Below are positions 310-30,728 of a stretch of DNA of 30,728 nucleotides, piece by piece. The position numbers and the translations under genes were made by a program. Location: IMG/VR virus record IMGVR_UViG_2695420871_000006; one strand, written 5' to 3'. This stretch comes from a virus (taxonomy: Duplodnaviria > Heunggongvirae > Uroviricota > Caudoviricetes). The notes under the pieces are model-generated. The model saw only the letters and a list, made by a program, of their open reading frames with translations. It had not been told where the DNA came from and ran no database searches. Each line of letters begins with the position of its first letter. The first letter of the stretch is position 1.

Positions 310-1047
310 TCATTCACTCTCTTTCAAACCAGTTTTAACTGTTTGTGGTTTTGGGTAAGGCTGGACTTTGAATAGCTTTGTGTTAAGGCGTTTTCTGGCT
401 CTCTTGTCCAGAAACCGGATGTAACGAAACTGACGGAATTTATGAACACTGGCTCTGTCGATATTAGCCCGCAGATGTTCACCTCGCTGTCCTCCTCGTT
501 TGATTGCATTCTTGCAAATCTCGTGATACCACTCGCCATCAAGTTCATAGAATGTTGTTTCATGACTGCCTACATAATCAAAATTGCTTGCCTGGTACAC
601 GACACCAAGACAGCCACAACGCTCATCTGCAAACGACTGAACCCACTGCACCTGCGGATAAAGTTGTCTGATTAGTTTGAGCGCGTAACTGATTGCCCTT
701 GATTCAGAGTTTCTCGGCATACAGTCATGCAGCCATAACCGGTTAAGCTCCATATATTCGCGGTTCTGCGTGCCAGTTACGACGCGTGCACCATTGTTTG
801 GATTAAGGGCATAACCCCATTGCATTACGCCAACCAGCTCCCGTTCTGAAAATATGCCCAGATGAAGGTAGGAATTATTTACGAAACGATGGCTGTAATG
901 TTTATTGACGACGACCAGCCGGGCCAGCCAGCAACTTATTGTCTCAACCCGTAACTCACGGGAGCCATAACCGACGATATTGTCGTTATAGTGAATAAGT
1001 TCAGGCGTGCTGATGATACGGGATGTAACTTGCTTTCTGTTCCCCAC
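310..1047 (-). CDS. mom: Mom-like DNA (adenine) modification protein, anti-restriction. Start uncertain: GTG at 1045-1047 is proposed, but the frame is open up to 1242.
   Basis: Large ORF overlapping and immediately downstream of com, and the last gene before the phage end as in Mu. The proposed GTG lies in the 3' arm of a hairpin with AAGGAAA in the loop. Confidence 0.7.
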
Positions 1048-1201
1048 GACAGGATTTCCTTGTGTATGTGGGGTGCTCTGTGGCGCTCTGAGATGTGATT
1101 TGATTGAGGGTTTTACAGCGCGGACATTTAACTTCCAGATAACTGAAGCTGGCTCGTGCCAGTAGCTTGTTACAATGTCGGCACCGTATGTTTCGATACA
1201 T
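1001..1201 (-). CDS. com: Com, zinc-finger translational activator of mom (about 66 aa from ATG 1199-1201; the track ORF extends to a TTG at 1246)
   Basis: Protein [34 protein letters not shown]... has a CxxC...CPRC zinc finger resembling Mu Com as recalled from memory. AGGAGG (revcomp of 1212-1217) lies 10 nt upstream of the ATG. Confidence 0.8.
1042..1073 (-). promoter_or_regulatory. mRNA hairpin (CCCCAC, 20-nt loop, GUGGGG) sequestering the putative mom GUG start and SD; candidate Com-responsive translational switch
   Basis: Perfect 6-bp GC stem read from the sequence. Matches the established Com mechanism of unmasking the mom translation initiation region. Confidence 0.5.
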
Positions 1202-1248
1202 GGCCGCATAACCTCCTGCTTTGTTGTTGATATCTTTATCACTCAATC

Positions 1249-2535: not shown

Positions 2536-4590
2536 TTACGCGTTATTCACTTCCACCACGATACTGTCAATCAGTACCGGGTAAGTCGCATTTTTAGTGA
2601 TATCGGTCACGCGCAACTTGTCTGCCGTAAACGTGCCGACCGGAGACTGCGACAGCATGAATGGTGTCCCGTCCTTACCATCAATGACCGGCGTCACCTC
2701 AATACTGTTGTTACCGGCAAAACGGAAGCCCAGCGTATGCCATTCGTTATTAAATGCACCGAATGACCCCAGTTTCGTGTTTTGCGCCGTATTGCCCTTG
2801 TGGTACATCACGTTAAGGTCTGTGGCATCGCTCTGTACATAGAATGACGCCAGCAAGTTATGACCTGAATTACCTTCCAGCATGACACCCTGAGGCAGTG
2901 AAGAAACCGGCCAGTATAGCGCCAGTGCATACCGATTAGCCGTAAGCGCACCATCAAGTTTAAAACGACAACTGACAAGACCGCCTTTACCCAGGAGGTC
3001 TGCGCCATTACCAGCATCATGCTCAAGGTACCAGGAGGCTCTTCCTGTTTCCTTGGTCAGTTTCATTGCCTTACCCCCGCTGGCTCCGGCATCATCCACG
3101 ATTTGAGCCTTGCCACCTCCGGCAGCCCAACCCTGTGGTGTCAACCGTCCTTCAGACTCAGATGCCCGGTAAGCAAATAGCGTACTCATCGTCGTGGTGT
3201 CTGCGGGTGGCGTGGACGGTTTTGATGGTGTATCAGGTGACGGCTTCTCATCCGGTGGTGTCACGGTCTGCCCGCGCATCAATTCAGCCGTGCGCCCTGC
3301 ATGGAGCATAATAGCTGAGGCCAGACGGTCTGAAATGACGCCCCTGCGTGCCCATGAGCTGAAATGGCTGTCACGCTGTGTCGAAACAAAACTGCCCTGG
3401 GTTCGGGATGCTGCACCGTAATACCCGACAGCCACAATATCCGGGTCTTCCGCCGGAGCATTCGTTGGCGTGCTCTGTCCATTCTCATCCGTCAGGAACG
3501 GTACAAAGAAAATTTTCTGTGCTTCCTTGCCTTTGTAGCCACCGTATACTGCCTCATATTTATCGGTGCCAGCGTTTTTCCAGTAATACGTGGTATCACC
3601 GCAAATCCACGGCACCGTGGTGGCATTTCCACTCACGCACTGCGCAGCAAGCGGAGCCAGGTCAGTTCTGAACTGCTGAACCATGGCCGTGAATAAACTA
3701 TTATGCTGCTGGCTTCCTGAGGCAAGGTCTGCCTCTCCCTGCATCCAGACCACAGCCAGAAGTTTGTTTTTCGGGTTTTTCGCCAGCGCGACTTTGGTGC
3801 GGCTTACCAGGTCCTGATACAGAGGTTTACCGGCCCCCCAGCGTGAAGAATCAGCGGAAGCACCGCTGGCCTCACTGAATGAGCCGTCGGCTCCAGTGGT
3901 GAATGCTGACCCGCCACGACAACAGGGCACCAGAAGTATCCCCGCATTCTGTGGGATATAGGGAAGCAGTTTTTTGGCAATATGCAACCCCTGACTGACA
4001 GTCCCGTACTGGCCTTTTGCCAGATCAGCTTTCGGGTGGTTTATCCCGCTCATATCCTGAACATCATGCAGGCAGTGGTCTGCCGGAATGATGTCGTTGT
4101 ATGTACACGACGTACCGTTGGGCGTTACCGTACTGCGGCGTGCCAGTTGCTTAATGCGTGGGTCCGGGCGGTCAAACGAATCCGGTAACGGCAGCCCCTC
4201 GCCGTAGGCCATGCCATTTGACTGACCCGCGAGAATGACAACAAAGTAATATTCCGGCTCTGAACTGCTGCCATTCGTGCTACCGGAAGGCCCGGCGTTA
4301 TCCGGTGCATTCCAGTCGGAGGGCGTGAGCGTTCCGGCCACGTCAGATGTGATTGGAATGATGCCAGTCACGCCTGAACTGGTGATTTCTGCACTGGGAT
4401 TACCGGATACCGGCATTACCCATAATGGCTCTTTCGTGCTGAAGCGGATCACGCAGTCTGCGAAGGTGATCCCCCCTTTATTACCCGAAGGGCGGAAAGG
4501 GCTTTCAATAAATGCCACCGTGCCACCGGCAACCTTGACTGAAAACTCTCCGGGCATGGCGGAGAGCATTTTCCACTTGGAGTCTGACAT
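2536..4590 (-). CDS. Prophage cargo carbohydrate O-acetylesterase (SGNH/SASA family, NanS-p-like sialate O-acetylesterase) with N-terminal domain, Pro-rich linker and C-terminal lectin-like domain; 684 aa
   Basis: Motifs LAGQSNGMAYG, CCRGGSAF and VVWMQGEADL match the GQSN / WxQGE(S/A)D signatures of the sialate O-acetylesterase family. Linker PPDEKPSPDTPSKPSTPP. Sits downstream of tail fibre genes as nanS-p genes do in EHEC prophages. Confidence 0.65.
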   Translation of the reverse strand: MSDSKWKMLSAMPGEFSVKVAGGTVAFIESPFRPSGNKGGITFADCVIRFSTKEPLWVMPVSGNPSAEITSSGVTGIIPITSDVAGTLTPSDWNAPDNAGPSGSTNGSSSEPEYYFVVILAGQSNGMAYGEGLPLPDSFDRPDPRIKQLARRSTVTPNGTSCTYNDIIPADHCLHDVQDMSGINHPKADLAKGQYGTVSQGLHIAKKLLPYIPQNAGILLVPCCRGGSAFTTGADGSFSEASGASADSSRWGAGKPLYQDLVSRTKVALAKNPKNKLLAVVWMQGEADLASGSQQHNSLFTAMVQQFRTDLAPLAAQCVSGNATTVPWICGDTTYYWKNAGTDKYEAVYGGYKGKEAQKIFFVPFLTDENGQSTPTNAPAEDPDIVAVGYYGAASRTQGSFVSTQRDSHFSSWARRGVISDRLASAIMLHAGRTAELMRGQTVTPPDEKPSPDTPSKPSTPPADTTTMSTLFAYRASESEGRLTPQGWAAGGGKAQIVDDAGASGGKAMKLTKETGRASWYLEHDAGNGADLLGKGGLVSCRFKLDGALTANRYALALYWPVSSLPQGVMLEGNSGHNLLASFYVQSDATDLNVMYHKGNTAQNTKLGSFGAFNNEWHTLGFRFAGNNSIEVTPVIDGKDGTPFMLSQSPVGTFTADKLRVTDITKNATYPVLIDSIVVEVNNA

Positions 4591-6922: not shown

Positions 6923-7995
6923 GTGATTTCTCCCACCGTCAGCAGCTCACTGTCTCCCGCCTGAACTGACGTCAGCGGACTGCGCACTTCAAAATCCTCC
7001 AGATTTTTCACCCCCGCCACAGCACGCCAGAAAGACGACGGCAGAACCAGACCGCCGGGCCGGGATTCGTTGTATAACAGGTCGGTCAGCGCCTGTTTTA
7101 CGGCCGCCTGATTCTCCGGTGTTTTCGGGATGATCCTGATGCTGAAGGGCACCGGCTTATTGGTCAGTTTAAACACGGTCACCGTCGGCCCCAGAGGCTG
7201 TCCGACAGGCTGGCCGGTCGCCGGATCATCATGACTGCGGATATAATCCGCCACCCGCTGAACATCACCGTCACCGGGGAAAATATCCGGGTTATTATCC
7301 TGAACAAACGTTACCCCCACGCTGCCCGCCTGCGGCCATTCCGGGCGGCACCATGCCCGCGTTACGCCCGGCACTTCACGCGCCCAGCGTTCAAAATCAT
7401 ACTGCGTGCCGCCGGACGGTGGATTCTGCACCCGGAAAACCAGACGGGAAAGCAACTCCGGCACGGTTTCCACATCCGCACCACCGGTGATCCCCGTTCC
7501 GGTCACCGTGGCCGTCTGGTTGATCCCCGCCTGCGGTGTGATAAATGTCAGTTTTGTCCCTGCCGGGGCATTCCCCGCACGACCGGCACTTTCGGCTTCC
7601 ACACTGACATTCAGCGTACCGGCCTTACCGGTCAGTGAGGTGGTGATACGGTAAACCACGCCATCACTTCGCTGGAGAAGCACACCTTCCTTGATCCCCG
7701 CATCCGTGGTCAGCATCAGCTGAACCGGCCCGTCCCCCCGAGAGGCAGGCTTACGCATGACGCCCCAGAATGCACAGTGTTTCAGCAGTTCGGCTTCATC
7801 GGCTTCGGTCGGGATGATCTGACGCGCAATCCAGGCCAGATGCTCATGCTCCTGAGCAGATAACCCTGCCTGAGCGTAAGCAATGGCATTCAGGGTGGTT
7901 TCATTCACACCCGGCTGCGAGCCGGGCAGGCGCTGGCTGATATCCTGCTGTGTCTGCGTGATTAACTGTGCCAGCGGTAAAGGCTGATAAGGCAT
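6913..7995 (-). CDS. Baseplate J-like protein (Mu gp47-like)
   Basis: 360 aa; synteny; TAATG stop/start overlap with the upstream gene. Confidence 0.8.
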   Translation of the reverse strand: MPYQPLPLAQLITQTQQDISQRLPGSQPGVNETTLNAIAYAQAGLSAQEHEHLAWIARQIIPTEADEAELLKHCAFWGVMRKPASRGDGPVQLMLTTDAGIKEGVLLQRSDGVVYRITTSLTGKAGTLNVSVEAESAGRAGNAPAGTKLTFITPQAGINQTATVTGTGITGGADVETVPELLSRLVFRVQNPPSGGTQYDFERWAREVPGVTRAWCRPEWPQAGSVGVTFVQDNNPDIFPGDGDVQRVADYIRSHDDPATGQPVGQPLGPTVTVFKLTNKPVPFSIRIIPKTPENQAAVKQALTDLLYNESRPGGLVLPSSFWRAVAGVKNLEDFEVRSPLTSVQAGDSELLTVGEITWL

Positions 7996-8432
7996 TACTC
8001 CCCCTTAAGATCAGCATAAAAAATCATGGGCCTCACTGAACCATCAGGCAGGGTTATGCGCACCGAAAGCGCCAGCCGCGCGTGCCCCACACGTTCTGCA
8101 TGACAGACCACGGATGACGCCACGCCATCCTGACTGAGCCAGCCCAGCGCCTCATCCGCATAGGCACGGGCACGGCTTATCACGGAGGCCAGCGTTTTTT
8201 CCCGGCGGAGAAGCCACAGACGGGAGCCAATGGGACGCGGGCGAAAACTGTCTCCCCACCATCCCCGGCGGTCACGCGTACCGTCAGGGATTTCATCCGA
8301 TGCCAGCGCCCGGCGGTCAGTAAACAGCGAAATCAGAACGGCCGTCAGCAGACTGTCATCCGTCAGCAGGTCGGCACCGTTCAGTTGCAGCGAACCGCAC
8401 CCCTGATCCCATACAATTGCAATATCAGCCAT
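7995..8432 (-). CDS. Baseplate wedge protein (Mu gp46-like, GPW/gp25-like); start at ATG 8430-8432 (track ORF extends to 8576)
   Basis: MADIAIVWDQGCGSLQLNGADLL... is typical of GPW-family proteins. The longer upstream extension overlaps the previous gene. Confidence 0.75.
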   Translation of the reverse strand: MADIAIVWDQGCGSLQLNGADLLTDDSLLTAVLISLFTDRRALASDEIPDGTRDRRGWWGDSFRPRPIGSRLWLLRREKTLASVISRARAYADEALGWLSQDGVASSVVCHAERVGHARLALSVRITLPDGSVRPMIFYADLKGE

Positions 8433-19937: not shown

Positions 19938-20411
19938 TTACGGCGTTTCTGTGGCCTTTTTAAAGCGTTTTCTGATTTCGTCCATGATCTCCTGTTCTGC
20001 CACCTGATCAAAGCCCATATACGGACGTGCGCCAATGGCCGCCGGTCCCGGTGGCATACCAGGCAGGCCACCCCACTGATGAATGGCCGCATAAGGTTCA
20101 TTTGATCCAATCAGCGCCCAGGTATCGCCATAATCCGTGGTCAGGCGGCGGGCCAGATCGCCGTTCAGTGTCAGGATTTTGCCGGGCGTGTATCCCTTAC
20201 GGGTACGCCACTTGCGGTAAGGATCTGACCAGTCATGCCAGCGTTCGCCGTCCGGCTCTTTTTCCTGTTCAAACGCCATTTCTGACGATGACAGAAGACT
20301 CTCCGCCACACTGCGGGCCAGGTCTTTTCCGCCGCCCACAAACTGAAGCCGGGCAAACACCCGCTGGAGACGCGTAACGTCAACAACGACAGCGGCATCA
20401 ATGGATGACAT
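19938..20411 (-). CDS. Virion morphogenesis protein (Mu G-like)
   Basis: 157 aa; GGAGG upstream of ATG; synteny. Confidence 0.8.
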   Translation of the reverse strand: MSSIDAAVVVDVTRLQRVFARLQFVGGGKDLARSVAESLLSSSEMAFEQEKEPDGERWHDWSDPYRKWRTRKGYTPGKILTLNGDLARRLTTDYGDTWALIGSNEPYAAIHQWGGLPGMPPGPAAIGARPYMGFDQVAEQEIMDEIRKRFKKATETP

Positions 20412-20532
20412 ATTGCCTCCGCATAAAGGATGAATATAAAATAAACAGGCGGTCAGTGTACGCTTAACTGGTAAAGTCGGTGCCTGCCTCCGGGTGGATC
20501 ATGTATGCGGGTTCGACCCCCGCCACTGACCG

Positions 20533-21864
20533 TTAATCAATTTGTCCTTCCAGCACCTCAAGCATTCCGCCCCGGATATCCGATTTCAGCTTATCCATAT
20601 TGATAACCCGGTAAGCATTCACAATCACATCCAGTTTGTCGGGCTGACGTTTCAGACTGTACGGTGCATTAACGGCAATCTGCACACTGCCATCCTTATT
20701 TTCCACGATATACATCAGATTTTTGTGCCGTTTGTCCCACAGCACCGCTTTTGGCTTTGCCAGCATTGCCGGTAAGCGCCCGAAGTCCTCTGGCATCAGG
20801 GCGATGCCGTCATTCTGATGTTTCACACTGTCTGCATGGAGCACATTTTTACCGCTCATCGCCAGCAGGCGGGCCGGTGGCGTTCCCGTCCGGCTTTCCA
20901 CTGCCTGCGCAATGCTTTCAGTCATAAAGCCCAGCGTGCGGATATCGTTACCACCTCGCCGGGTCTGCATGATGTTTTTTGCCCAGATGCGGAACGCCAG
21001 CTGCCGCTCCGGGCTGTTGTTCATCTCCTGAACCACCATTTCCCGTAACGCCGGGCTTTTCACCTCGATCAGTTTGCGGATCAGCGCCTGGTCTGTGCCG
21101 AACGCTGCCGAGCCGGGGTTATATGACCAGCCCACATCCGGTGTCATGGTTCTGGTGCCATCTGAATATGTGGTCACCGGCATTTCTCTGACTTCTCCGG
21201 TCTGTTTATCCACGCCAGCCTCAACATTGCGGGTGGAGAGATGATCCTCACCGGATGAAACGGATAACCCCATTGCATCCAGACGAGCCTGAGACAATGG
21301 CCGCACACGGCAGCGGCAGTTCCAGCCATTAGGTGGGTAGTGTGTTTTCCAGAACGGATCGTCATAGCGGAATACCAGACCGTTAAGGGCGGAATGCGAC
21401 GGGCGGGTACGGCTGTCCATGACCGCCACATACTGCCAGAACGGATGCGTGTCCGTGTTGTTCATCATCTGCGTGTAACGCCCGGCATTGTAAGCCACCC
21501 GGGTGTTCACGTTGTAAATCAGCGCCAGACGACGGGGACTGCCCAGTTGCACTTCTTCCGCGTTACCGTCGCTGTCCACCACAATCTGCTTTCCCCACCA
21601 TCCCAGCTTTTGCAGGCGTGGCGTCAGCGTGCGGATAAATGCTTTCTGTGAAATTCCCTCATCAATGGCCCGCTGCACTTCGGCCTGTAACGTGGTCACT
21701 ACATCCAGGCGTGCCGCTTTTGCTGCCGTGAATGAGCGGGCATGAACATCCGCGGCTGTTTCGAACCAGTTCCAGCTGATATGCGCCCCTTTGGCGCGGA
21801 AGTATGCCACCGTCTCTTTTGAGGGAAGCGTGGCGGCATAACCTAAATCAATCTCCTGAGCCAT
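20533..21864 (-). CDS. Head morphogenesis protein (Mu F-like)
   Basis: 443 aa downstream of the portal. Confidence 0.8.
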   Translation of the reverse strand: MAQEIDLGYAATLPSKETVAYFRAKGAHISWNWFETAADVHARSFTAAKAARLDVVTTLQAEVQRAIDEGISQKAFIRTLTPRLQKLGWWGKQIVVDSDGNAEEVQLGSPRRLALIYNVNTRVAYNAGRYTQMMNNTDTHPFWQYVAVMDSRTRPSHSALNGLVFRYDDPFWKTHYPPNGWNCRCRVRPLSQARLDAMGLSVSSGEDHLSTRNVEAGVDKQTGEVREMPVTTYSDGTRTMTPDVGWSYNPGSAAFGTDQALIRKLIEVKSPALREMVVQEMNNSPERQLAFRIWAKNIMQTRRGGNDIRTLGFMTESIAQAVESRTGTPPARLLAMSGKNVLHADSVKHQNDGIALMPEDFGRLPAMLAKPKAVLWDKRHKNLMYIVENKDGSVQIAVNAPYSLKRQPDKLDVIVNAYRVINMDKLKSDIRGGMLEVLEGQID

Positions 21865-27993: not shown

Positions 27994-28416
27994 TCAGAAA
28001 AGCCGTGGCTGCGTGCGTTCCTGATGCAGGCGACGCTGGTTGCGGATAACGGAGTAAATCTGCGTCTCTGACATCTGGTAGTGGCGGCGCAGGGTTTCAA
28101 TTTTTTCGCCCTGGCTCCAGCGGGAAAAAATTTCATTATTGCGCAGTTCGGTGAAAAGGGATTCACCGACCGGGAGATAATAACCACGCCCGCCCATGTA
28201 CCCGGCCTGTGCGGCTGCAACCTTACGGGCAAGCATTCCCGCCTGAGCAGGTTCAATCCCCTGACGGTGCAGTTCAGCACTGATCACATCAACCAGGTCC
28301 CGCAGCGTGCCGGGCCAGTTCTTTTTCAGCTCATCATCAGGAATATCATCCAGACGGTCAATCAGCGCGTGCAGCTGTTCGCTGTCACCAAACATGCTCA
28401 TCTGTGTTTCAGCCAT
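27994..28416 (-). CDS. Mor/C-family transcriptional activator of middle/late genes (140 aa)
   Basis: C-terminal ...GGRGYYLPVGESLFTELRNNEIFSRW...ETQIYSVIR is typical of the Mor/C family. GGAGG SD. Located between gemA and lys. Confidence 0.8.
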   Translation of the reverse strand: MAETQMSMFGDSEQLHALIDRLDDIPDDELKKNWPGTLRDLVDVISAELHRQGIEPAQAGMLARKVAAAQAGYMGGRGYYLPVGESLFTELRNNEIFSRWSQGEKIETLRRHYQMSETQIYSVIRNQRRLHQERTQPRLF

Positions 28417-28450
28417 ACCCGCCTCCGGTCATCATTACACAGGGCAAGTT

Positions 28451-28480
28451 TAAAATAAAAATCCCGCGCTGTGGCGGGAT
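28451..28480 (-). terminator. Intrinsic terminator 7 bp downstream of gemA: ATCCCGC (6-nt loop) GCGGGAT followed by UUUUAUUUUA on the minus strand
   Basis: 7-bp perfect stem with a U-run read on the minus strand. Confidence 0.65.
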
Positions 28481-28486
28481 TTGGGG

Positions 28487-28999
28487 TTAAAAGGGGGAGG
28501 ATTCTTCATACAGCCTGCAAACGCGCTCATAACTCATCACTGTACGCGCTGACATCCCCAGCACATCCAGCATCTTGCGGCGGTGCCAGCGTTTGAGACG
28601 CTCCAGCACATCAGAGGCCAGCGCGGGGTGTTGTTCCAGCCACTGCCAGTTAGCCACACCTTCGCCGCCGTTCTGAGCGGCCGTCTGCGATTTCACCCAG
28701 CGGTTAAGGGCTGTTTCCCCGCCATCAGAGATAAAGCCCTGCCGGTGCATCACCTTCCAGATGGCGCGAATTTTGGCGGTCACCGTACCCGGTTTTAAGG
28801 CCCGGTTAACCGGCTTCTGACGCACTTTAAAACCGCGTTTTTTGAAAACATCCAGCACGCGGGATAACTCATCCGGTGACATATCCCGGCAACTGGGTTT
28901 GCCGGTGGCTGCCAGTAGTACGGATGTGTAGGTCTCATGGTCAAGCTGTAGATCGCATTTTGCGACATGTATTAAGGTAATCAGGGAAGCGCGATTCAT
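28487..28999 (-). CDS. gemA: GemA-like early regulatory protein (Mu gp16-like)
   Basis: 170 aa; position immediately upstream of the Mor/C gene; Trp-rich C-terminal half. Confidence 0.7.
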   Translation of the reverse strand: MNRASLITLIHVAKCDLQLDHETYTSVLLAATGKPSCRDMSPDELSRVLDVFKKRGFKVRQKPVNRALKPGTVTAKIRAIWKVMHRQGFISDGGETALNRWVKSQTAAQNGGEGVANWQWLEQHPALASDVLERLKRWHRRKMLDVLGMSARTVMSYERVCRLYEESSPF

Positions 29000-29063
29000 T
29001 ATCGTGTCTCCGTAACAACAGGCGGCATGGCAACGCCGCCCGGATAAAACTAAAGGTATCGAT

Positions 29064-29474
29064 ATGAAAATAGATTACGATGAAGTATTAAGTATTCTCA
29101 CAACTTTTCAGGATGCTGAAACACCTTTCCTTACACTACAGGATCTGGGCATGGCTGAGGCAGAAGGAGAGGAAAAGGATAAAAAAGTTTTTCATCTTAT
29201 GCTTCTCGCTGATAATGGCTCAATTGTTAATGGTGATATGCGGTCAGAAACACCAAAATATATTGGTTTCTTTTTTCATTCTCTGGGCGTTGGTTTCAGA
29301 AACACGCCCATTATGCTTACTCAGCAGGGGCATGATTTAGCTAACGCCCTGAGAAAAAAACCAATCCTTGAAAGAATCAAAAAGGAGTTTACAGACGCGC
29401 CATTTGATCTAATCAAAGAAGTTACCAAATCAATGTTAACCAGGTTCGTCAAAGAACGTATTGGGATTGACTAA
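29064..29474 (+). CDS. Hypothetical protein, 136 aa, AT-rich opposite-strand moron in the early region
   Basis: ATG with AAAGG 7 nt upstream. Clearly AT-rich by eye. Own terminator 24 bp downstream. No recognised motif. Confidence 0.55.
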   Translation: MKIDYDEVLSILTTFQDAETPFLTLQDLGMAEAEGEEKDKKVFHLMLLADNGSIVNGDMRSETPKYIGFFFHSLGVGFRNTPIMLTQQGHDLANALRKKPILERIKKEFTDAPFDLIKEVTKSMLTRFVKERIGID

Positions 29475-29744
29475 ACAACTTAATTCAGCCAGTAATCGCA
29501 GGGCGGCGACAGCCGCCTGCTTGTCACTTCTTTTAGCTATTTCCGCAAGGGTATGCACAATCCATAACGGACTTAACGCTACGGCTGAATCCAGAATCAT
29601 GTCATCCATAATAATTTCTGGCATATCCCGCTTGTCACATTCTTTATCCATAAAAGAAACGAATTTTTCAGCATCTTCCGGTTTCATCCCTCCGGCGATA
29701 AGGATTTTGCGATATTCATAAGACGATCTTAATTCAATACTCAT
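29436..29744 (-). CDS. Hypothetical early-region protein, 102 aa
   Basis: ATG 29742-29744 with AGGTG SD; 15 nt after the upstream gene's stop; 3' end overlaps the moron by 39 nt. Confidence 0.45.
   Translation of the reverse strand: MSIELRSSYEYRKILIAGGMKPEDAEKFVSFMDKECDKRDMPEIIMDDMILDSAVALSPLWIVHTLAEIAKRSDKQAAVAALRLLAELSCLVNPNTFFDEPG
29498..29534 (+). terminator. Hairpin GCAGGGCGGC (GACA loop) GCCGCCTGC followed by TTGTCACTTCTTTT; candidate terminator for the plus-strand moron
   Basis: 10-bp stem with one bulge and a U-rich tail; lies inside the coding region of the opposite-strand ORF 29436-29744. Confidence 0.45.
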
Positions 29745-29759
29745 TATTCACCTGCCTGC

Positions 29760-30110
29760 TTAATCTGTTTCCAGTGCTTTGCTACGAGCTATAGCCTCAC
29801 ATTCAAAAAATACCGACTCCGGCACGCGCCCTTTTAATTCACGAACAAGGAAGTCATTAACGCGTTCATGACGTCTTATATTTCTTTCCTTTTCCTCCTG
29901 GCGCAATACAGCAAGGCGGTATTCAACAGCCCGGCGTTGTTTCTGAAAGACAGCCAGTGCTTTTCTGGCAGCATTACGCCATGCATCATCGCCACATGGT
30001 GCGTATTCAAGCTGAAATTTAATCTCTTCAATAGTTTCTTTGATTTTTGCCAGCAAGCTAAGACAGTCGCTTATTGTCTCCAGCTTTTCATTATCAATAT
30101 AACTTCTCAC
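29760..30110 (-). CDS. Hypothetical early-region protein (116 aa from GTG 30108-30110; track ORF starts at GTG 30152)
   Basis: No internal Met. The GTG at 30108-30110 has GGAGG 7 nt upstream and forms a GTGA overlap with the upstream stop. Confidence 0.5.
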   Translation of the reverse strand: MRSYIDNEKLETISDCLSLLAKIKETIEEIKFQLEYAPCGDDAWRNAARKALAVFQKQRRAVEYRLAVLRQEEKERNIRRHERVNDFLVRELKGRVPESVFFECEAIARSKALETD

Positions 30111-30436
30111 GCATTCACCTCCCGTAATTCCGGTAAAGCCGAAATATGACACCAGTGCGTCACCTGTCCGTCTTCATCTTCAAGGCAGGCTCCGGTTTCT
30201 TCATCAACAAAAAAGCCTTCATACCCCATATGGCCGATGCGCAGCTCCTGACGGTGACCATACTGAACAATCAGCACGACAGCCTCCATATCAGGTGGGA
30301 AAGCATCATTCAGTGAATGCCAGGGATAACCGCGTAAATCCCCGAAATAAACACCGGTCAGCGTTCCGCCACAGAGCGGCATTCCGGCGGCACACACAAG
30401 AGGTTCATCTGATTCAACAAATAAGGTCGTTATCAT
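30107..30436 (-). CDS. Hypothetical early-region protein, 109 aa
   Basis: ATG 30434-30436 in an ATGA overlap with the upstream gene; GGGAG SD. Confidence 0.55.
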   Translation of the reverse strand: MITTLFVESDEPLVCAAGMPLCGGTLTGVYFGDLRGYPWHSLNDAFPPDMEAVVLIVQYGHRQELRIGHMGYEGFFVDEETGACLEDEDGQVTHWCHISALPELREVNA

Positions 30437-30728
30437 GGCGTTAACTCCCGTAATACAGCGTCCTCGGCAGTCCGGCGACGGTAATAAACTGCGTGAGCAG
30501 AATGTTCAGATATTCCAAACTTTTCGCCAATTTCCCGGAATGACAGACGGCGTGGGTAATCGGAATCACGCAGCGCACGTATAAGACGTACATCATCATC
30601 AGATATGCGCGTGCCGGGGCGTAACTCTCCGCACTTTGGGTGATGCTGCCAACTTACTGATTTAGTGTATGATGGTGTTTTTGAGGTGCTCCAGTGGCTT
30701 CTGTTTCTATCAGCTGTCCCTCCTGTTC
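30433..30728 (-). CDS. 3' part of an early gene running off the window; C-terminus has a helix-turn-helix-like motif
   Basis: Hand translation of the open minus frame gives ...ISDDDVRLIRALRDSDYPRRLSFREIGEKFGISEHSAHAVYYRRRTAEDAVLRELTP, with stop TGA at 30433-30435. Confidence 0.45.
   Translation of the reverse strand, partial: TGGTADRNRSHWSTSKTPSYTKSVSWQHHPKCGELRPGTRISDDDVRLIRALRDSDYPRRLSFREIGEKFGISEHSAHAVYYRRRTAEDAVLRELTP

Follow-up and report, generated by a model that had tools for sequence, protein, structure and literature searches.

In the Pe early operon of phage Mu the slot between gp12 and gemA is occupied by gp13, gp14 and gp15 (E14, E15), which are small and uncharacterised. Gp15 is encoded on the opposite strand directly upstream of gemA, where it overlaps with the preceding gene at the 3' end of the latter. 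In the Mu-like prophage Sp18 of Escherichia coli O157:H7 and its relatives (FRIK944, locus L002; TOE17, locus L001) the interval from gp12 to gemA holds four genes in a common order. Among the accessory early proteins of other temperate phages, DUF551 has been described as a portable domain that occurs in the Ea22 variant V2 of Stx phages and in YfdS of CPS-53, and the phenotypes reported for DUF551 proteins involve the balance between lysis and lysogeny (Stx Ea22) and the sensitivity to oxidative stress (yfdS) (PMC10834534, PMC4776307).

The window, i.e. the whole stretch of 30,728 nucleotides analysed here, carries the same four genes in the same order, with amino-acid identities of 99% to TOE17 and of 72-95% to the O157 type. 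We assign a probability of roughly 0.6 to the reading that this block belongs to a transposable E. coli prophage of the Sp18/O157 type, in which it forms the distal accessory portion of a Mu-type early operon. The intact copy in TOE17, which is 99.3% identical, shows the order A, B, ..., Gam, gp11, gp12, HTH183, 109, 116, 102, DUF2513 (opposite strand), GemA and Mor. According to this copy, the block lies on the early-operon strand with the A/B transposition genes on one side and gemA/mor on the other, and it is bordered by gp12 and gemA, where Mu has gp13-gp15. This order agrees with an earlier note on this DNA, which had placed the genes in a Mu-like semi-essential early region. The same note had positioned them upstream of gemA. 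They do belong to the same early operon, but they do not directly adjoin gemA, since a plus-strand DUF2513 gene (29064-29474) lies in between and extends over the first 39 bases of the region that had been described.

The conserved right-hand anchor of this variable interval is gemA (gp16; 28487-28999, minus strand), the product of which matches the Pfam GemA family with an E value of 2.8e-28 and is 47% identical to Mu GemA. A GemA search of the genome contigs gave no match. The gene of the middle-operon activator, mor (27994-28416, minus strand), lies downstream and is oriented like the block; its product is named “Mor transcription activator family protein” in RefSeq and is 28% identical to Mu Mor. 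At its other end the same prophage carries Mom.

Three complete minus-strand open reading frames were identified at 30107-30436 (109 aa), 29760-30110 (116 aa, GTG start) and 29436-29744 (102 aa), in addition to an upstream frame ending at 30433, and the RefSeq annotation of the 99.3% identical prophage gives the same coordinates. The translational coupling reported in the earlier note was recovered in full: stop and start codons overlap as ATGA at 30436-30433 and as GTGA at 30110-30107, and a Shine-Dalgarno sequence precedes each of the three starts (GGGAG, GGGAGGTG and AGGTGA). These sequences and the overlaps are conserved. In comparison with the O157-type copies dN/dS amounts to 0.06-0.18 in the called frames (102-aa gene, 0.06; 109-aa gene, 0.08-0.18; 116-aa gene, 0.12-0.16; HTH remnant, 0.16) and to about 1 or more in most other frames; judged from the aligned sequences, all four genes evolve under purifying selection. 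Their GC contents of 42%, 43%, 51% and 52% are below the 57% of the late genes, as had been estimated by eye. No convincing internal promoter was seen in the block, the genes of which lie on one strand with overlapping stops and starts; the position of Pe itself is outside the window, on the far side of IS1. Furthermore, the Rfam search of the whole window revealed nothing at gathering thresholds, with only chance-level matches in 28300-30728, and ARAGORN detected no tRNA. The whole block is present in 122 of 5,426 complete E. coli genomes, and its genes are annotated as hypothetical in every case. The four genes are real, but they are ordinary: they belong to the accessory early genes of a Mu-like prophage that is common in E. 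coli and are already annotated in many genomes.

The outermost gene of the block is represented by a 3' remnant of 67 codons plus stop without a start codon (30433-30638, minus strand), which aligns to residues 117-183 of WP_000977058-type proteins and contains the third HTH repeat only. Its partial state had been attributed to the end of the DNA. It is true that only the 3' part of the gene is present; the gene is cut, however, by an insertion sequence and not merely by the window end. Positions 30639-30728 (plus strand) correspond to bases 1-90 of IS1, comprising the terminal inverted repeat and the start of insA and reading away from the phage genes, and they are identical to the annotated IS1 of phage P1 at 90 of 90 positions (100%) and 98-100% identical to thousands of IS1 copies. 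On this sequence match the segment is not phage DNA. IS1 base 1 at position 30639 falls within codon 116 of the 183-codon HTH gene, leaving the 67 codons at 30436-30638, and since the reading frame stays open by chance through the IS1 end, the gene appears to run off the window. The window ends inside the element and holds only its first 90 bases, so that the other junction and the target-site duplication lie outside. This particular junction was found in none of the 5,426 complete E. coli genomes. Neither the IS1 insertion nor the opposite-strand DUF2513 cassette had been mentioned in the earlier note.

The full-length product of the interrupted gene is a basic protein (pI 10) of 183 aa with three HTH repeats, as recognised in an alignment with Mu gp9. 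The HTH-like C-terminus that had been noticed in the remnant was confirmed: the motif is recognisable in the part present in the window, and residues 130-164 of the full-length protein match HTH_AsnC (E 0.0012) and HTH_10 (E 0.0015), both below the Pfam cut-offs, as is a further match to Myb. The whole protein was assigned to PHROG 323, “transcriptional regulator”, with an E value of 2e-52. Mu gp9 (E8) belongs to the same PHROG (“transcriptional regulator, D5-like”; E 5e-29), and both proteins share the repeat pattern W/F-[TS]-x-[ED]-[ED]-D ... HTH. Gp9 differs in having 99 aa and two repeats instead of 183 aa and three, and it is encoded upstream of gam, whereas HTH183 is encoded downstream of gp12. 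The product is a three-repeat HTH protein that is predicted to bind DNA and is related to Mu gp9. The P2-like phage phiSM has a homologue in its early operon, adjoining an Ead/Ea22-like gene. The gene itself exists as two alleles that are only 72% identical, beside neighbours of 93-96% identity.

The 109-aa protein (30107-30436, minus strand; PHROG 6925, E 3.5e-51) is acidic (pI 4.3) and combines a family-specific N-terminus with a divergent DUF551-like C-terminal beta domain (approximately residues 44-103). An exhaustive HMMER search of 1.84 billion cluster representatives with the family profile gave 14 matches, of which 13 are genuine relatives and one, a eukaryotic fn3-repeat protein, was dismissed as spurious. 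The window protein gave no match to DUF551 (PF04448; Pfam gathering threshold 22 bits), and only one of 12 relatives reaches the domain at 15.9 bits (E 0.025). At the profile level, the family is homologous to a bona fide DUF551 domain: hhalign aligned it to the DUF551 region of YfdS with a probability of 66%, including the pattern PP..E.V.L...G...ETG...VTHW...PE, and YfdS residues 46-117 in turn match PHROG 6925 with an E value of 7e-13. This was the only link found when the 109, 116, 102, DUF2513, gp14 and gp15 families were compared by hhalign with the lambda exo-xis proteins, other accessory proteins of the lambda pL operon, the CPS-53 proteins and the early proteins of phiSM and Fraca. 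Residues 44-103 align with the DUF551 region of YfdS, and in Ea22 V2 DUF551 forms the C-terminal domain. Like YfdS and Ea22, the 109-aa protein is one of the accessory early proteins that temperate phages encode, and it shares its acidity with the C-terminal domains of Ea22. However, the coiled-coil N-terminal part of Ea22 and YfdS is missing from the 109-aa protein, in which the N-terminal 40 residues are specific to the family. The AlphaFold2 model is of low confidence (pLDDT 45).

The 116-aa protein (29760-30110, minus strand), translated from the GTG within the GTGA overlap with the upstream stop, is predicted to be a charged, helical, coiled-coil-like protein with the invariant motif RLAVLRxE(E/R)xERN. 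It belongs to PHROG 6158 (E 3e-54) and has homologues in E. coli, Salmonella and Serratia. Homologues with 36-40% identity are encoded one to three genes upstream of xis-int in the HK97-like phages Fraca, AsXd-1 and SaltyDalty, in the last of which a Lar-like restriction-alleviation gene lies three genes upstream of the homologue. The HK97-like phages are integrase-based lambdoid phages, whereas the phage of the window is transposable; their exo-xis or early-left region is likewise dispensable and mosaic.

The 102-aa protein (29436-29744, minus strand; PHROG 1988, E 8e-38) is acidic (pI 4.7) and predicted to form five helices, according to a low-confidence AlphaFold2 model (pLDDT 58) for which Foldseek returned no match at E <= 0.001 against PDB and BFVD. 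Relatives with 31-36% identity occur in Mu-proper lineages and the family is found in 44 of 67 gemA-anchored loci. A relationship to gp14 was rejected on the basis of hhalign between the slot families. The last approximately 20 codons of the gene belong to the exchanged DUF2513 cassette, and the C-terminus diverges at the cassette boundary.

The earlier note had found no motif in these proteins that could be placed. This still applies to Pfam and NCBIfam, which gave nothing meaningful for the 109-, 116- and 102-aa proteins, but no longer to the HTH protein, which shares the PHROG of Mu gp9, to the 109-aa protein, which is DUF551-like, or to the 116-aa protein, which falls into PHROG 6158. Except for the HTH family, all PHROG families concerned are labelled “unknown function”. 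None of the four genes is homologous to a characterised Mu early gene such as gam or kil, so that the homology which that note had named as a refutation of its reading was not found.

Between the block and gemA the plus strand encodes a DUF2513-like protein of 136 aa (29064-29474; GC 38%), named DUF2513 domain-containing in RefSeq and assigned to PHROG 585 (E 1e-17). The Pfam match to DUF2513 (PF10711) covers profile positions 1-96 of 100 with 23.3 bits (E 8.5e-5), which is under the gathering threshold of 29.6 bits. This gene converges on the 102-aa gene, with which it shares 39 bases, and diverges from gemA; no sigma-70 consensus promoter was found upstream of it in any lineage. According to a blastn comparison of the window with L002, a segment at 28972-29500 has no DNA similarity to the O157-type prophage, its boundaries lying inside gemA codons 1-9 and in the 3' end of the 102-aa gene. 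The O157-type copies instead contain two small same-strand ORFs (65 and 98 aa), and in locus L009 the DUF2513 gene is precisely deleted. It is this gene that forms the real exchangeable cassette. A two-gene module with the 102 family could not be substantiated: although the DUF2513 gene is preceded by a 102-family gene in 16 of 16 loci, only about three lineages among them are independent, and 44 of 67 loci contain the 102 family in any case, so that the pairing is not significant.

Mu gp15 resembles the DUF2513 gene in its orientation, in its position immediately upstream of gemA and in overlapping the 3' end of the preceding gene, but neither sequence nor profile similarity is detectable between gp13, gp14 or gp15 and the four window genes or DUF2513, and hhalign between the slot families led us to reject a relationship of gp15 to DUF2513. 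Lambda's sieB lies inside the pL operon. By analogy, the recurrent opposite-strand slot beside gemA, filled by the gp15 family in Mu and by DUF2513 here, might possibly be a prophage-expressed slot for exclusion or defence.

The description of the region as variable was borne out by the 67 gemA-anchored loci, in which the interval from gam to gemA shows many different gene orders. Mu is devoid of all four genes, and in close Sp18-type relatives the 109/116 pair is absent or replaced, the alternative being a 61-aa membrane ORF. Since close relatives exist without these genes or with replacements, the four genes are presumably dispensable for the phage. Across the loci compared, the gp12-gemA interval of Mu-like phages presents itself as a mosaic of exchangeable cassettes in which an opposite-strand slot recurs.

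After induction or infection the four genes would be transcribed early from Pe. As with the exo-xis accessory genes of lambdoid phages, where two of the four genes have relatives, their products would bind host DNA or host proteins and thereby tune the host physiology or the lysis-lysogeny outcome; they would not serve as core transposition or regulatory functions. IS1 insertions are polar, so that in the window the three intact genes as well as gemA and mor downstream would probably be cut off from Pe, and this prophage would then be impaired for middle and late expression. However, a terminator-like hairpin sits between gemA and mor, a hint that mor may be expressed independently in this lineage; if so, the case for a crippled prophage would be weaker.

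It has to be considered whether one or more of the four proteins inhibit host immunity (restriction, CRISPR or abortive infection), for which the small acidic 109-aa and 102-aa proteins are the most plausible candidates. The location in a dispensable, cassette-swapping early region would be consistent with such cargo, as would the small size and acidity of two of the products (pI 4.3 and 4.7), the AT-richness of the genes relative to the phage backbone and the very narrow distribution of the 109-aa family; the Lar-like gene near the SaltyDalty homologue of the 116-aa gene and Mom at the other end of the prophage add weak neighbourhood evidence. However, no homology to known defence or anti-defence proteins was detected in Pfam, NCBIfam, PHROGs, PADLOC (0 of 8 proteins), sequence and profile searches of the PDB or the Foldseek search of the 102-aa model. 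Matches obtained in the single-protein and profile searches of the PDB, i.e. designed coiled coils, helical repeats and the Abraxas coiled coil (E 6e-4), were rejected as compositional rather than homologous. We found no functional study of the four genes or of DUF2513 in the literature, and the phenotypes of DUF551 proteins relate to the lysis-lysogeny balance and to oxidative-stress sensitivity, not to immunity (PMC10834534, PMC4776307). Taking these points together, a role in anti-defence seems unlikely.

A role within the phage itself was considered as well, in which the HTH protein regulates early or middle transcription or binds the ends of Mu, with the small proteins as helpers of transposition or replication; this would correspond to the arm, cim and lig phenotypes known classically from the semi-essential region of Mu. 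Such a role could be suggested by the early-operon site directly upstream of the regulators gemA and mor, the pI of 10 and the three predicted DNA-binding repeats of the HTH protein, and the filing of PHROG 323 under transcription regulation. It is rendered quite improbable by Mu, which has none of the four genes at this position, by the lack of the 109/116 pair in close relatives and by the divergence of the HTH183 alleles (72% identity beside neighbours of 93-96%), which is typical of exchangeable accessory modules and not of co-evolving core regulators. It might also be suspected that the frames are open by chance or are pseudogenes decaying in a dead prophage, since all of the genes are annotated only as hypothetical proteins and one of them is a pseudogene fragment here through IS1. 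For the three complete genes this is effectively refuted by the low dN/dS values, which are confined to the called frames; the conserved Shine-Dalgarno sequences and overlaps, the intact genes in 122 complete E. coli genomes and the homologues in Salmonella, Serratia and isolated phages also argue against it, and we regard its probability as negligible.

The block is thus preferably read as distal accessory genes in the early operon of a prophage of the Sp18/O157 type. The significance of this is modest; it holds nothing surprising for the phage specialist and makes no open question testable. The end of the window is now read as an IS1 insertion and not as a gene running off the contig. Furthermore, three hypothetical proteins, which are carried by approximately 2-4% of complete E. 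coli genomes including O157:H7, receive their first placements through a DUF551-like domain, a PHROG (6158) common to lambdoid phages and the kinship with Mu gp9. There is a small chance that a lineage-restricted small acidic protein of this kind, with the DUF551-like 109-aa protein as the best candidate, may turn out to be a new early inhibitor of a host defence or physiology target from transposable phages. Screens for host takeover or anti-defence could reasonably include the gp12-gemA cassettes.

The minus-strand ORFs near gemA are real genes. Three complete ORFs encoding proteins of 109 aa (30107-30436), 116 aa (29760-30110, GTG start) and 102 aa (29436-29744) follow a minus-strand HTH ORF which ends at 30433 and of which only the 3' part is present. 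The ATGA overlap at 30436-30433 and the GTGA overlap at 30110-30107, from which coupling of the genes had been proposed, are both present, the third junction between the 116-aa and 102-aa genes is a 15-base spacer, and a Shine-Dalgarno sequence was found at each start, as the earlier note had claimed. The RefSeq annotation of the 99.3% identical prophage of E. coli TOE17 gives identical ORF coordinates, and in the comparison with the O157-type copies dN/dS was 0.06-0.18 in the called frames and about 1 or more in most other frames. The GC content of the four genes (42%, 43%, 51% and 52%) is indeed lower than that of the late genes (57%).

The HTH protein was correctly described as partial, but the phage part comprises only 67 codons (30436-30638), while the remainder belongs to an IS1 element that had been overlooked. 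The left end of IS1, with the terminal inverted repeat and the beginning of insA reading on the plus strand, opposite to the phage genes, occupies 30639-30728; thousands of IS1 copies match this segment at 98-100% identity, and when it is aligned with the IS1 annotated in phage P1, base 1 of IS1 falls at 30639. The minus-strand frame stays open across the IS1 end by chance, so that the HTH gene appears to continue. The 67 codons correspond to residues 117-183 of a 183-aa protein (HTH183) that TOE17 and O157 strains encode in full, the insertion point lying within codon 116. Since the junction was absent from all 5,426 complete E. coli genomes searched, the insertion is specific to the source strain. 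An IS3-family element with two transposase ORFs was detected inside the gp11-gemA interval of another Mu-like locus (L078:4363-5567), which suggests that IS insertions in the accessory region are tolerated or recurrent.

The window represents a Mu-like prophage of the Sp18/O157 type, extending from a Mom-family protein at its right end (310-1242, minus strand, E 1.6e-77) to the early region. The 684-aa product of a minus-strand gene at 2536-4590, probably a tail-fibre or tail-spike component, contains a SASA (sialate O-acetylesterase-like) and a DUF6645 domain. For the near-identical TOE17 prophage, RefSeq furthermore lists a 'tRNA-OTHER' (L001:1052-1131) between the genes for virion morphogenesis and head morphogenesis, corresponding to window positions ~20411-20533, for which neither ARAGORN nor Rfam detected a counterpart in the window.

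The early operon of the intact copy carries the genes of a Ner-like HTH protein, A and B, then several small genes, and after these Gam, gp11 and gp12, followed by HTH183, the 109-, 116- and 102-aa proteins, a DUF2513 protein on the other strand, GemA and Mor. The proteins gp11, gp12 and GemA are 68%, 55% and 47% identical to those of Mu; the slot filled here by the four genes harbours gp13, gp14 and the opposite-strand gp15 in Mu. No sequence or profile similarity between the four genes and gp13, gp14 or gp15 was found, nor does any of the four show a resemblance to Gam, Kil or the remaining characterised early genes of Mu; clear homology of all four to such genes, which the earlier note had named as refuting its reading, is thus not seen.

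The reading as a variable accessory early region is supported by the comparison of 80 GemA-anchored IMG/VR loci, onto which the known proteins were mapped. In 67 of these loci the ORFs of the gam-gemA interval were clustered, which yielded 38 different gene-order strings, a number inflated by spurious antisense ORFs from the crude ORF caller, among which there are several real arrangements. Besides the window type (HTH183-109-116-102-DUF2513(-)) these include the O157 type (HTH183-109-116-102-65aa-98aa), an arrangement with a 61-aa ORF of two transmembrane segments in place of the 109/116 pair (HTH183, 61-aa ORF, then 102-65aa-98aa), HTH183-109-gp13-like-gp14-like-gp15-like(-), and the Mu-proper arrangements gp12-gp13-(102-like)-gp14-gp15(-) or gp13-102-like-DUF2513(-). 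The 61-aa ORF (MIKRLVFFAIIVPVWGTGF...; L010:4969-5154, also L011, L012, L018, L021-L024 and others), which many Sp18-type relatives carry and for which no PHROG match was found, keeps the same ATGA overlap with the stop of the HTH gene. The HTH gene itself occurs as two alleles about 72% identical, while its neighbours are 93-96% identical.

The DUF2513 gene (29064-29474, plus strand, 136 aa, GC 38%; RefSeq 'DUF2513 domain-containing protein') lies between the 102-aa gene, with which it is convergent and shares a 39-base overlap (the first 39 bases of the region 29436-30728 singled out by the earlier note), and gemA, from which it diverges with a 64-base spacer. DNA similarity to the O157 type is lost exactly between 28972 and 29500, indicating that the swapped cassette consists of the DUF2513 gene together with the final ~20 codons of its 102-aa neighbour. 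Mu-proper lineages carry DUF2513 versions with 45-54% identity at this same position. Immediately upstream of gemA there is a recurrent slot for a gene on the opposite strand (7896-8162 in phage Mu; loci L044-L079), comparable to sieB embedded in the lambda pL operon. Of the 67 loci, 25 have the gp15 family there (counting two diverged clusters that hhalign joins at 95%) and 16 have the unrelated DUF2513 family. A consensus promoter for the DUF2513 gene was not found. Between the divergent gemA and DUF2513 starts there is a perfect 6-bp GC hairpin (GGCGGC-N8-GCCGCC, 29022-29041), followed by TGTTGTT on the minus strand. In one locus (L009:5943-5949) a clean 358-base deletion of 29058-29415 removes most of DUF2513 and leaves the flanking genes intact.

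The statement that none of the proteins carries a placeable motif has to be revised in part, as the families of HTH183 and the 116-aa protein could be placed and the 109-aa protein is DUF551-like, although in the window it remains below the Pfam threshold for this domain. HTH183 is basic (pI 10), is made of three tandem HTH repeats and matches PHROG 323 ('transcriptional regulator, D5-like', E 2e-52), as does Mu gp9 (5e-29). The P2-like Citrobacter phage phiSM has a 36% identical homologue in its early operon, beside an Ead/Ea22-like gene.

The acidic 109-aa protein (pI 4.3) belongs to a tiny family with 18 clusters in an index of 5.8 billion proteins; when 1.84 billion representatives were searched with the family profile, 14 hits were obtained, of which one, an fn3-repeat protein, was discarded as spurious. 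Judged from its sequence, the protein has a divergent DUF551-like domain in its C-terminal half: a distant member of the family matches Pfam DUF551 (E 0.025), hhalign of the family against YfdS of the cryptic prophage CPS-53 gave 66% probability over the DUF551 region, and YfdS matches PHROG 6925, the family of the 109-aa protein (E 7e-13). In the literature DUF551 is described as a portable domain of the Stx-phage Ea22 variant V2 and of YfdS; lysogeny is promoted by Ea22, and mutants of yfdS show sensitivity to H2O2 (PMC10834534; PMC4776307).

The 116-aa protein is charged and helical with the invariant motif RLAVLRxE(E/R)xERN. It is present in E. coli, Salmonella and Serratia, and homologues with 36-40% identity are encoded one to three genes upstream of xis-int in the HK97-like phages Fraca, AsXd-1 and SaltyDalty. 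The acidic 102-aa protein (pI 4.7) is predicted at low confidence to form five helices (pLDDT 58), and its model, the only one searched, gave no fold match; relatives with 31-36% identity are widespread in Mu-proper lineages, the family occurring in 44 of the 67 loci. No solved relative was found for any of the proteins.

All four genes fall in existing PHROGs, and of the 5,426 complete E. coli genomes 122 carry the whole block and 232 carry parts of it, the annotation being in every case hypothetical proteins and a DNA-binding protein. The region is of a known kind, and what is new here is the copy disrupted by IS1.

The four genes are shown to be selected, translationally coupled and cassette-like, and they lie in the distal part of the early operon in a transposable prophage; by comparison with relatives they appear dispensable. 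It is possible, but less likely than the host-directed role given below, that proteins of this variable slot serve as anti-defence cargo countering host defence, which would be in agreement with their small size, acidity and AT-rich genes, the variability of the slot and the location of one homologue near a Lar-like gene; PADLOC gave no match for any of the proteins.

In the 70-base gap that separates gemA from mor, two genes which overlap in Mu, there is a hairpin resembling a strong intrinsic terminator (9 pairs and a T-run; 28459-28482, minus strand). It suggests that mor is regulated differently in this lineage, and mor may have a separate route of expression.

IS1 insertions are polar. 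Pe, the Mu-type early promoter beyond IS1 and outside the window, has thus probably lost its connection to the three intact genes, to gemA and to mor in this strain, and this loss would impair middle and late expression. In intact copies the four genes would be expressed early from Pe. Like the accessory genes between exo and xis in lambdoid phages, among which two of the four have relatives, they probably act through their products on host DNA or host proteins, tuning host physiology or the lysis-lysogeny outcome.
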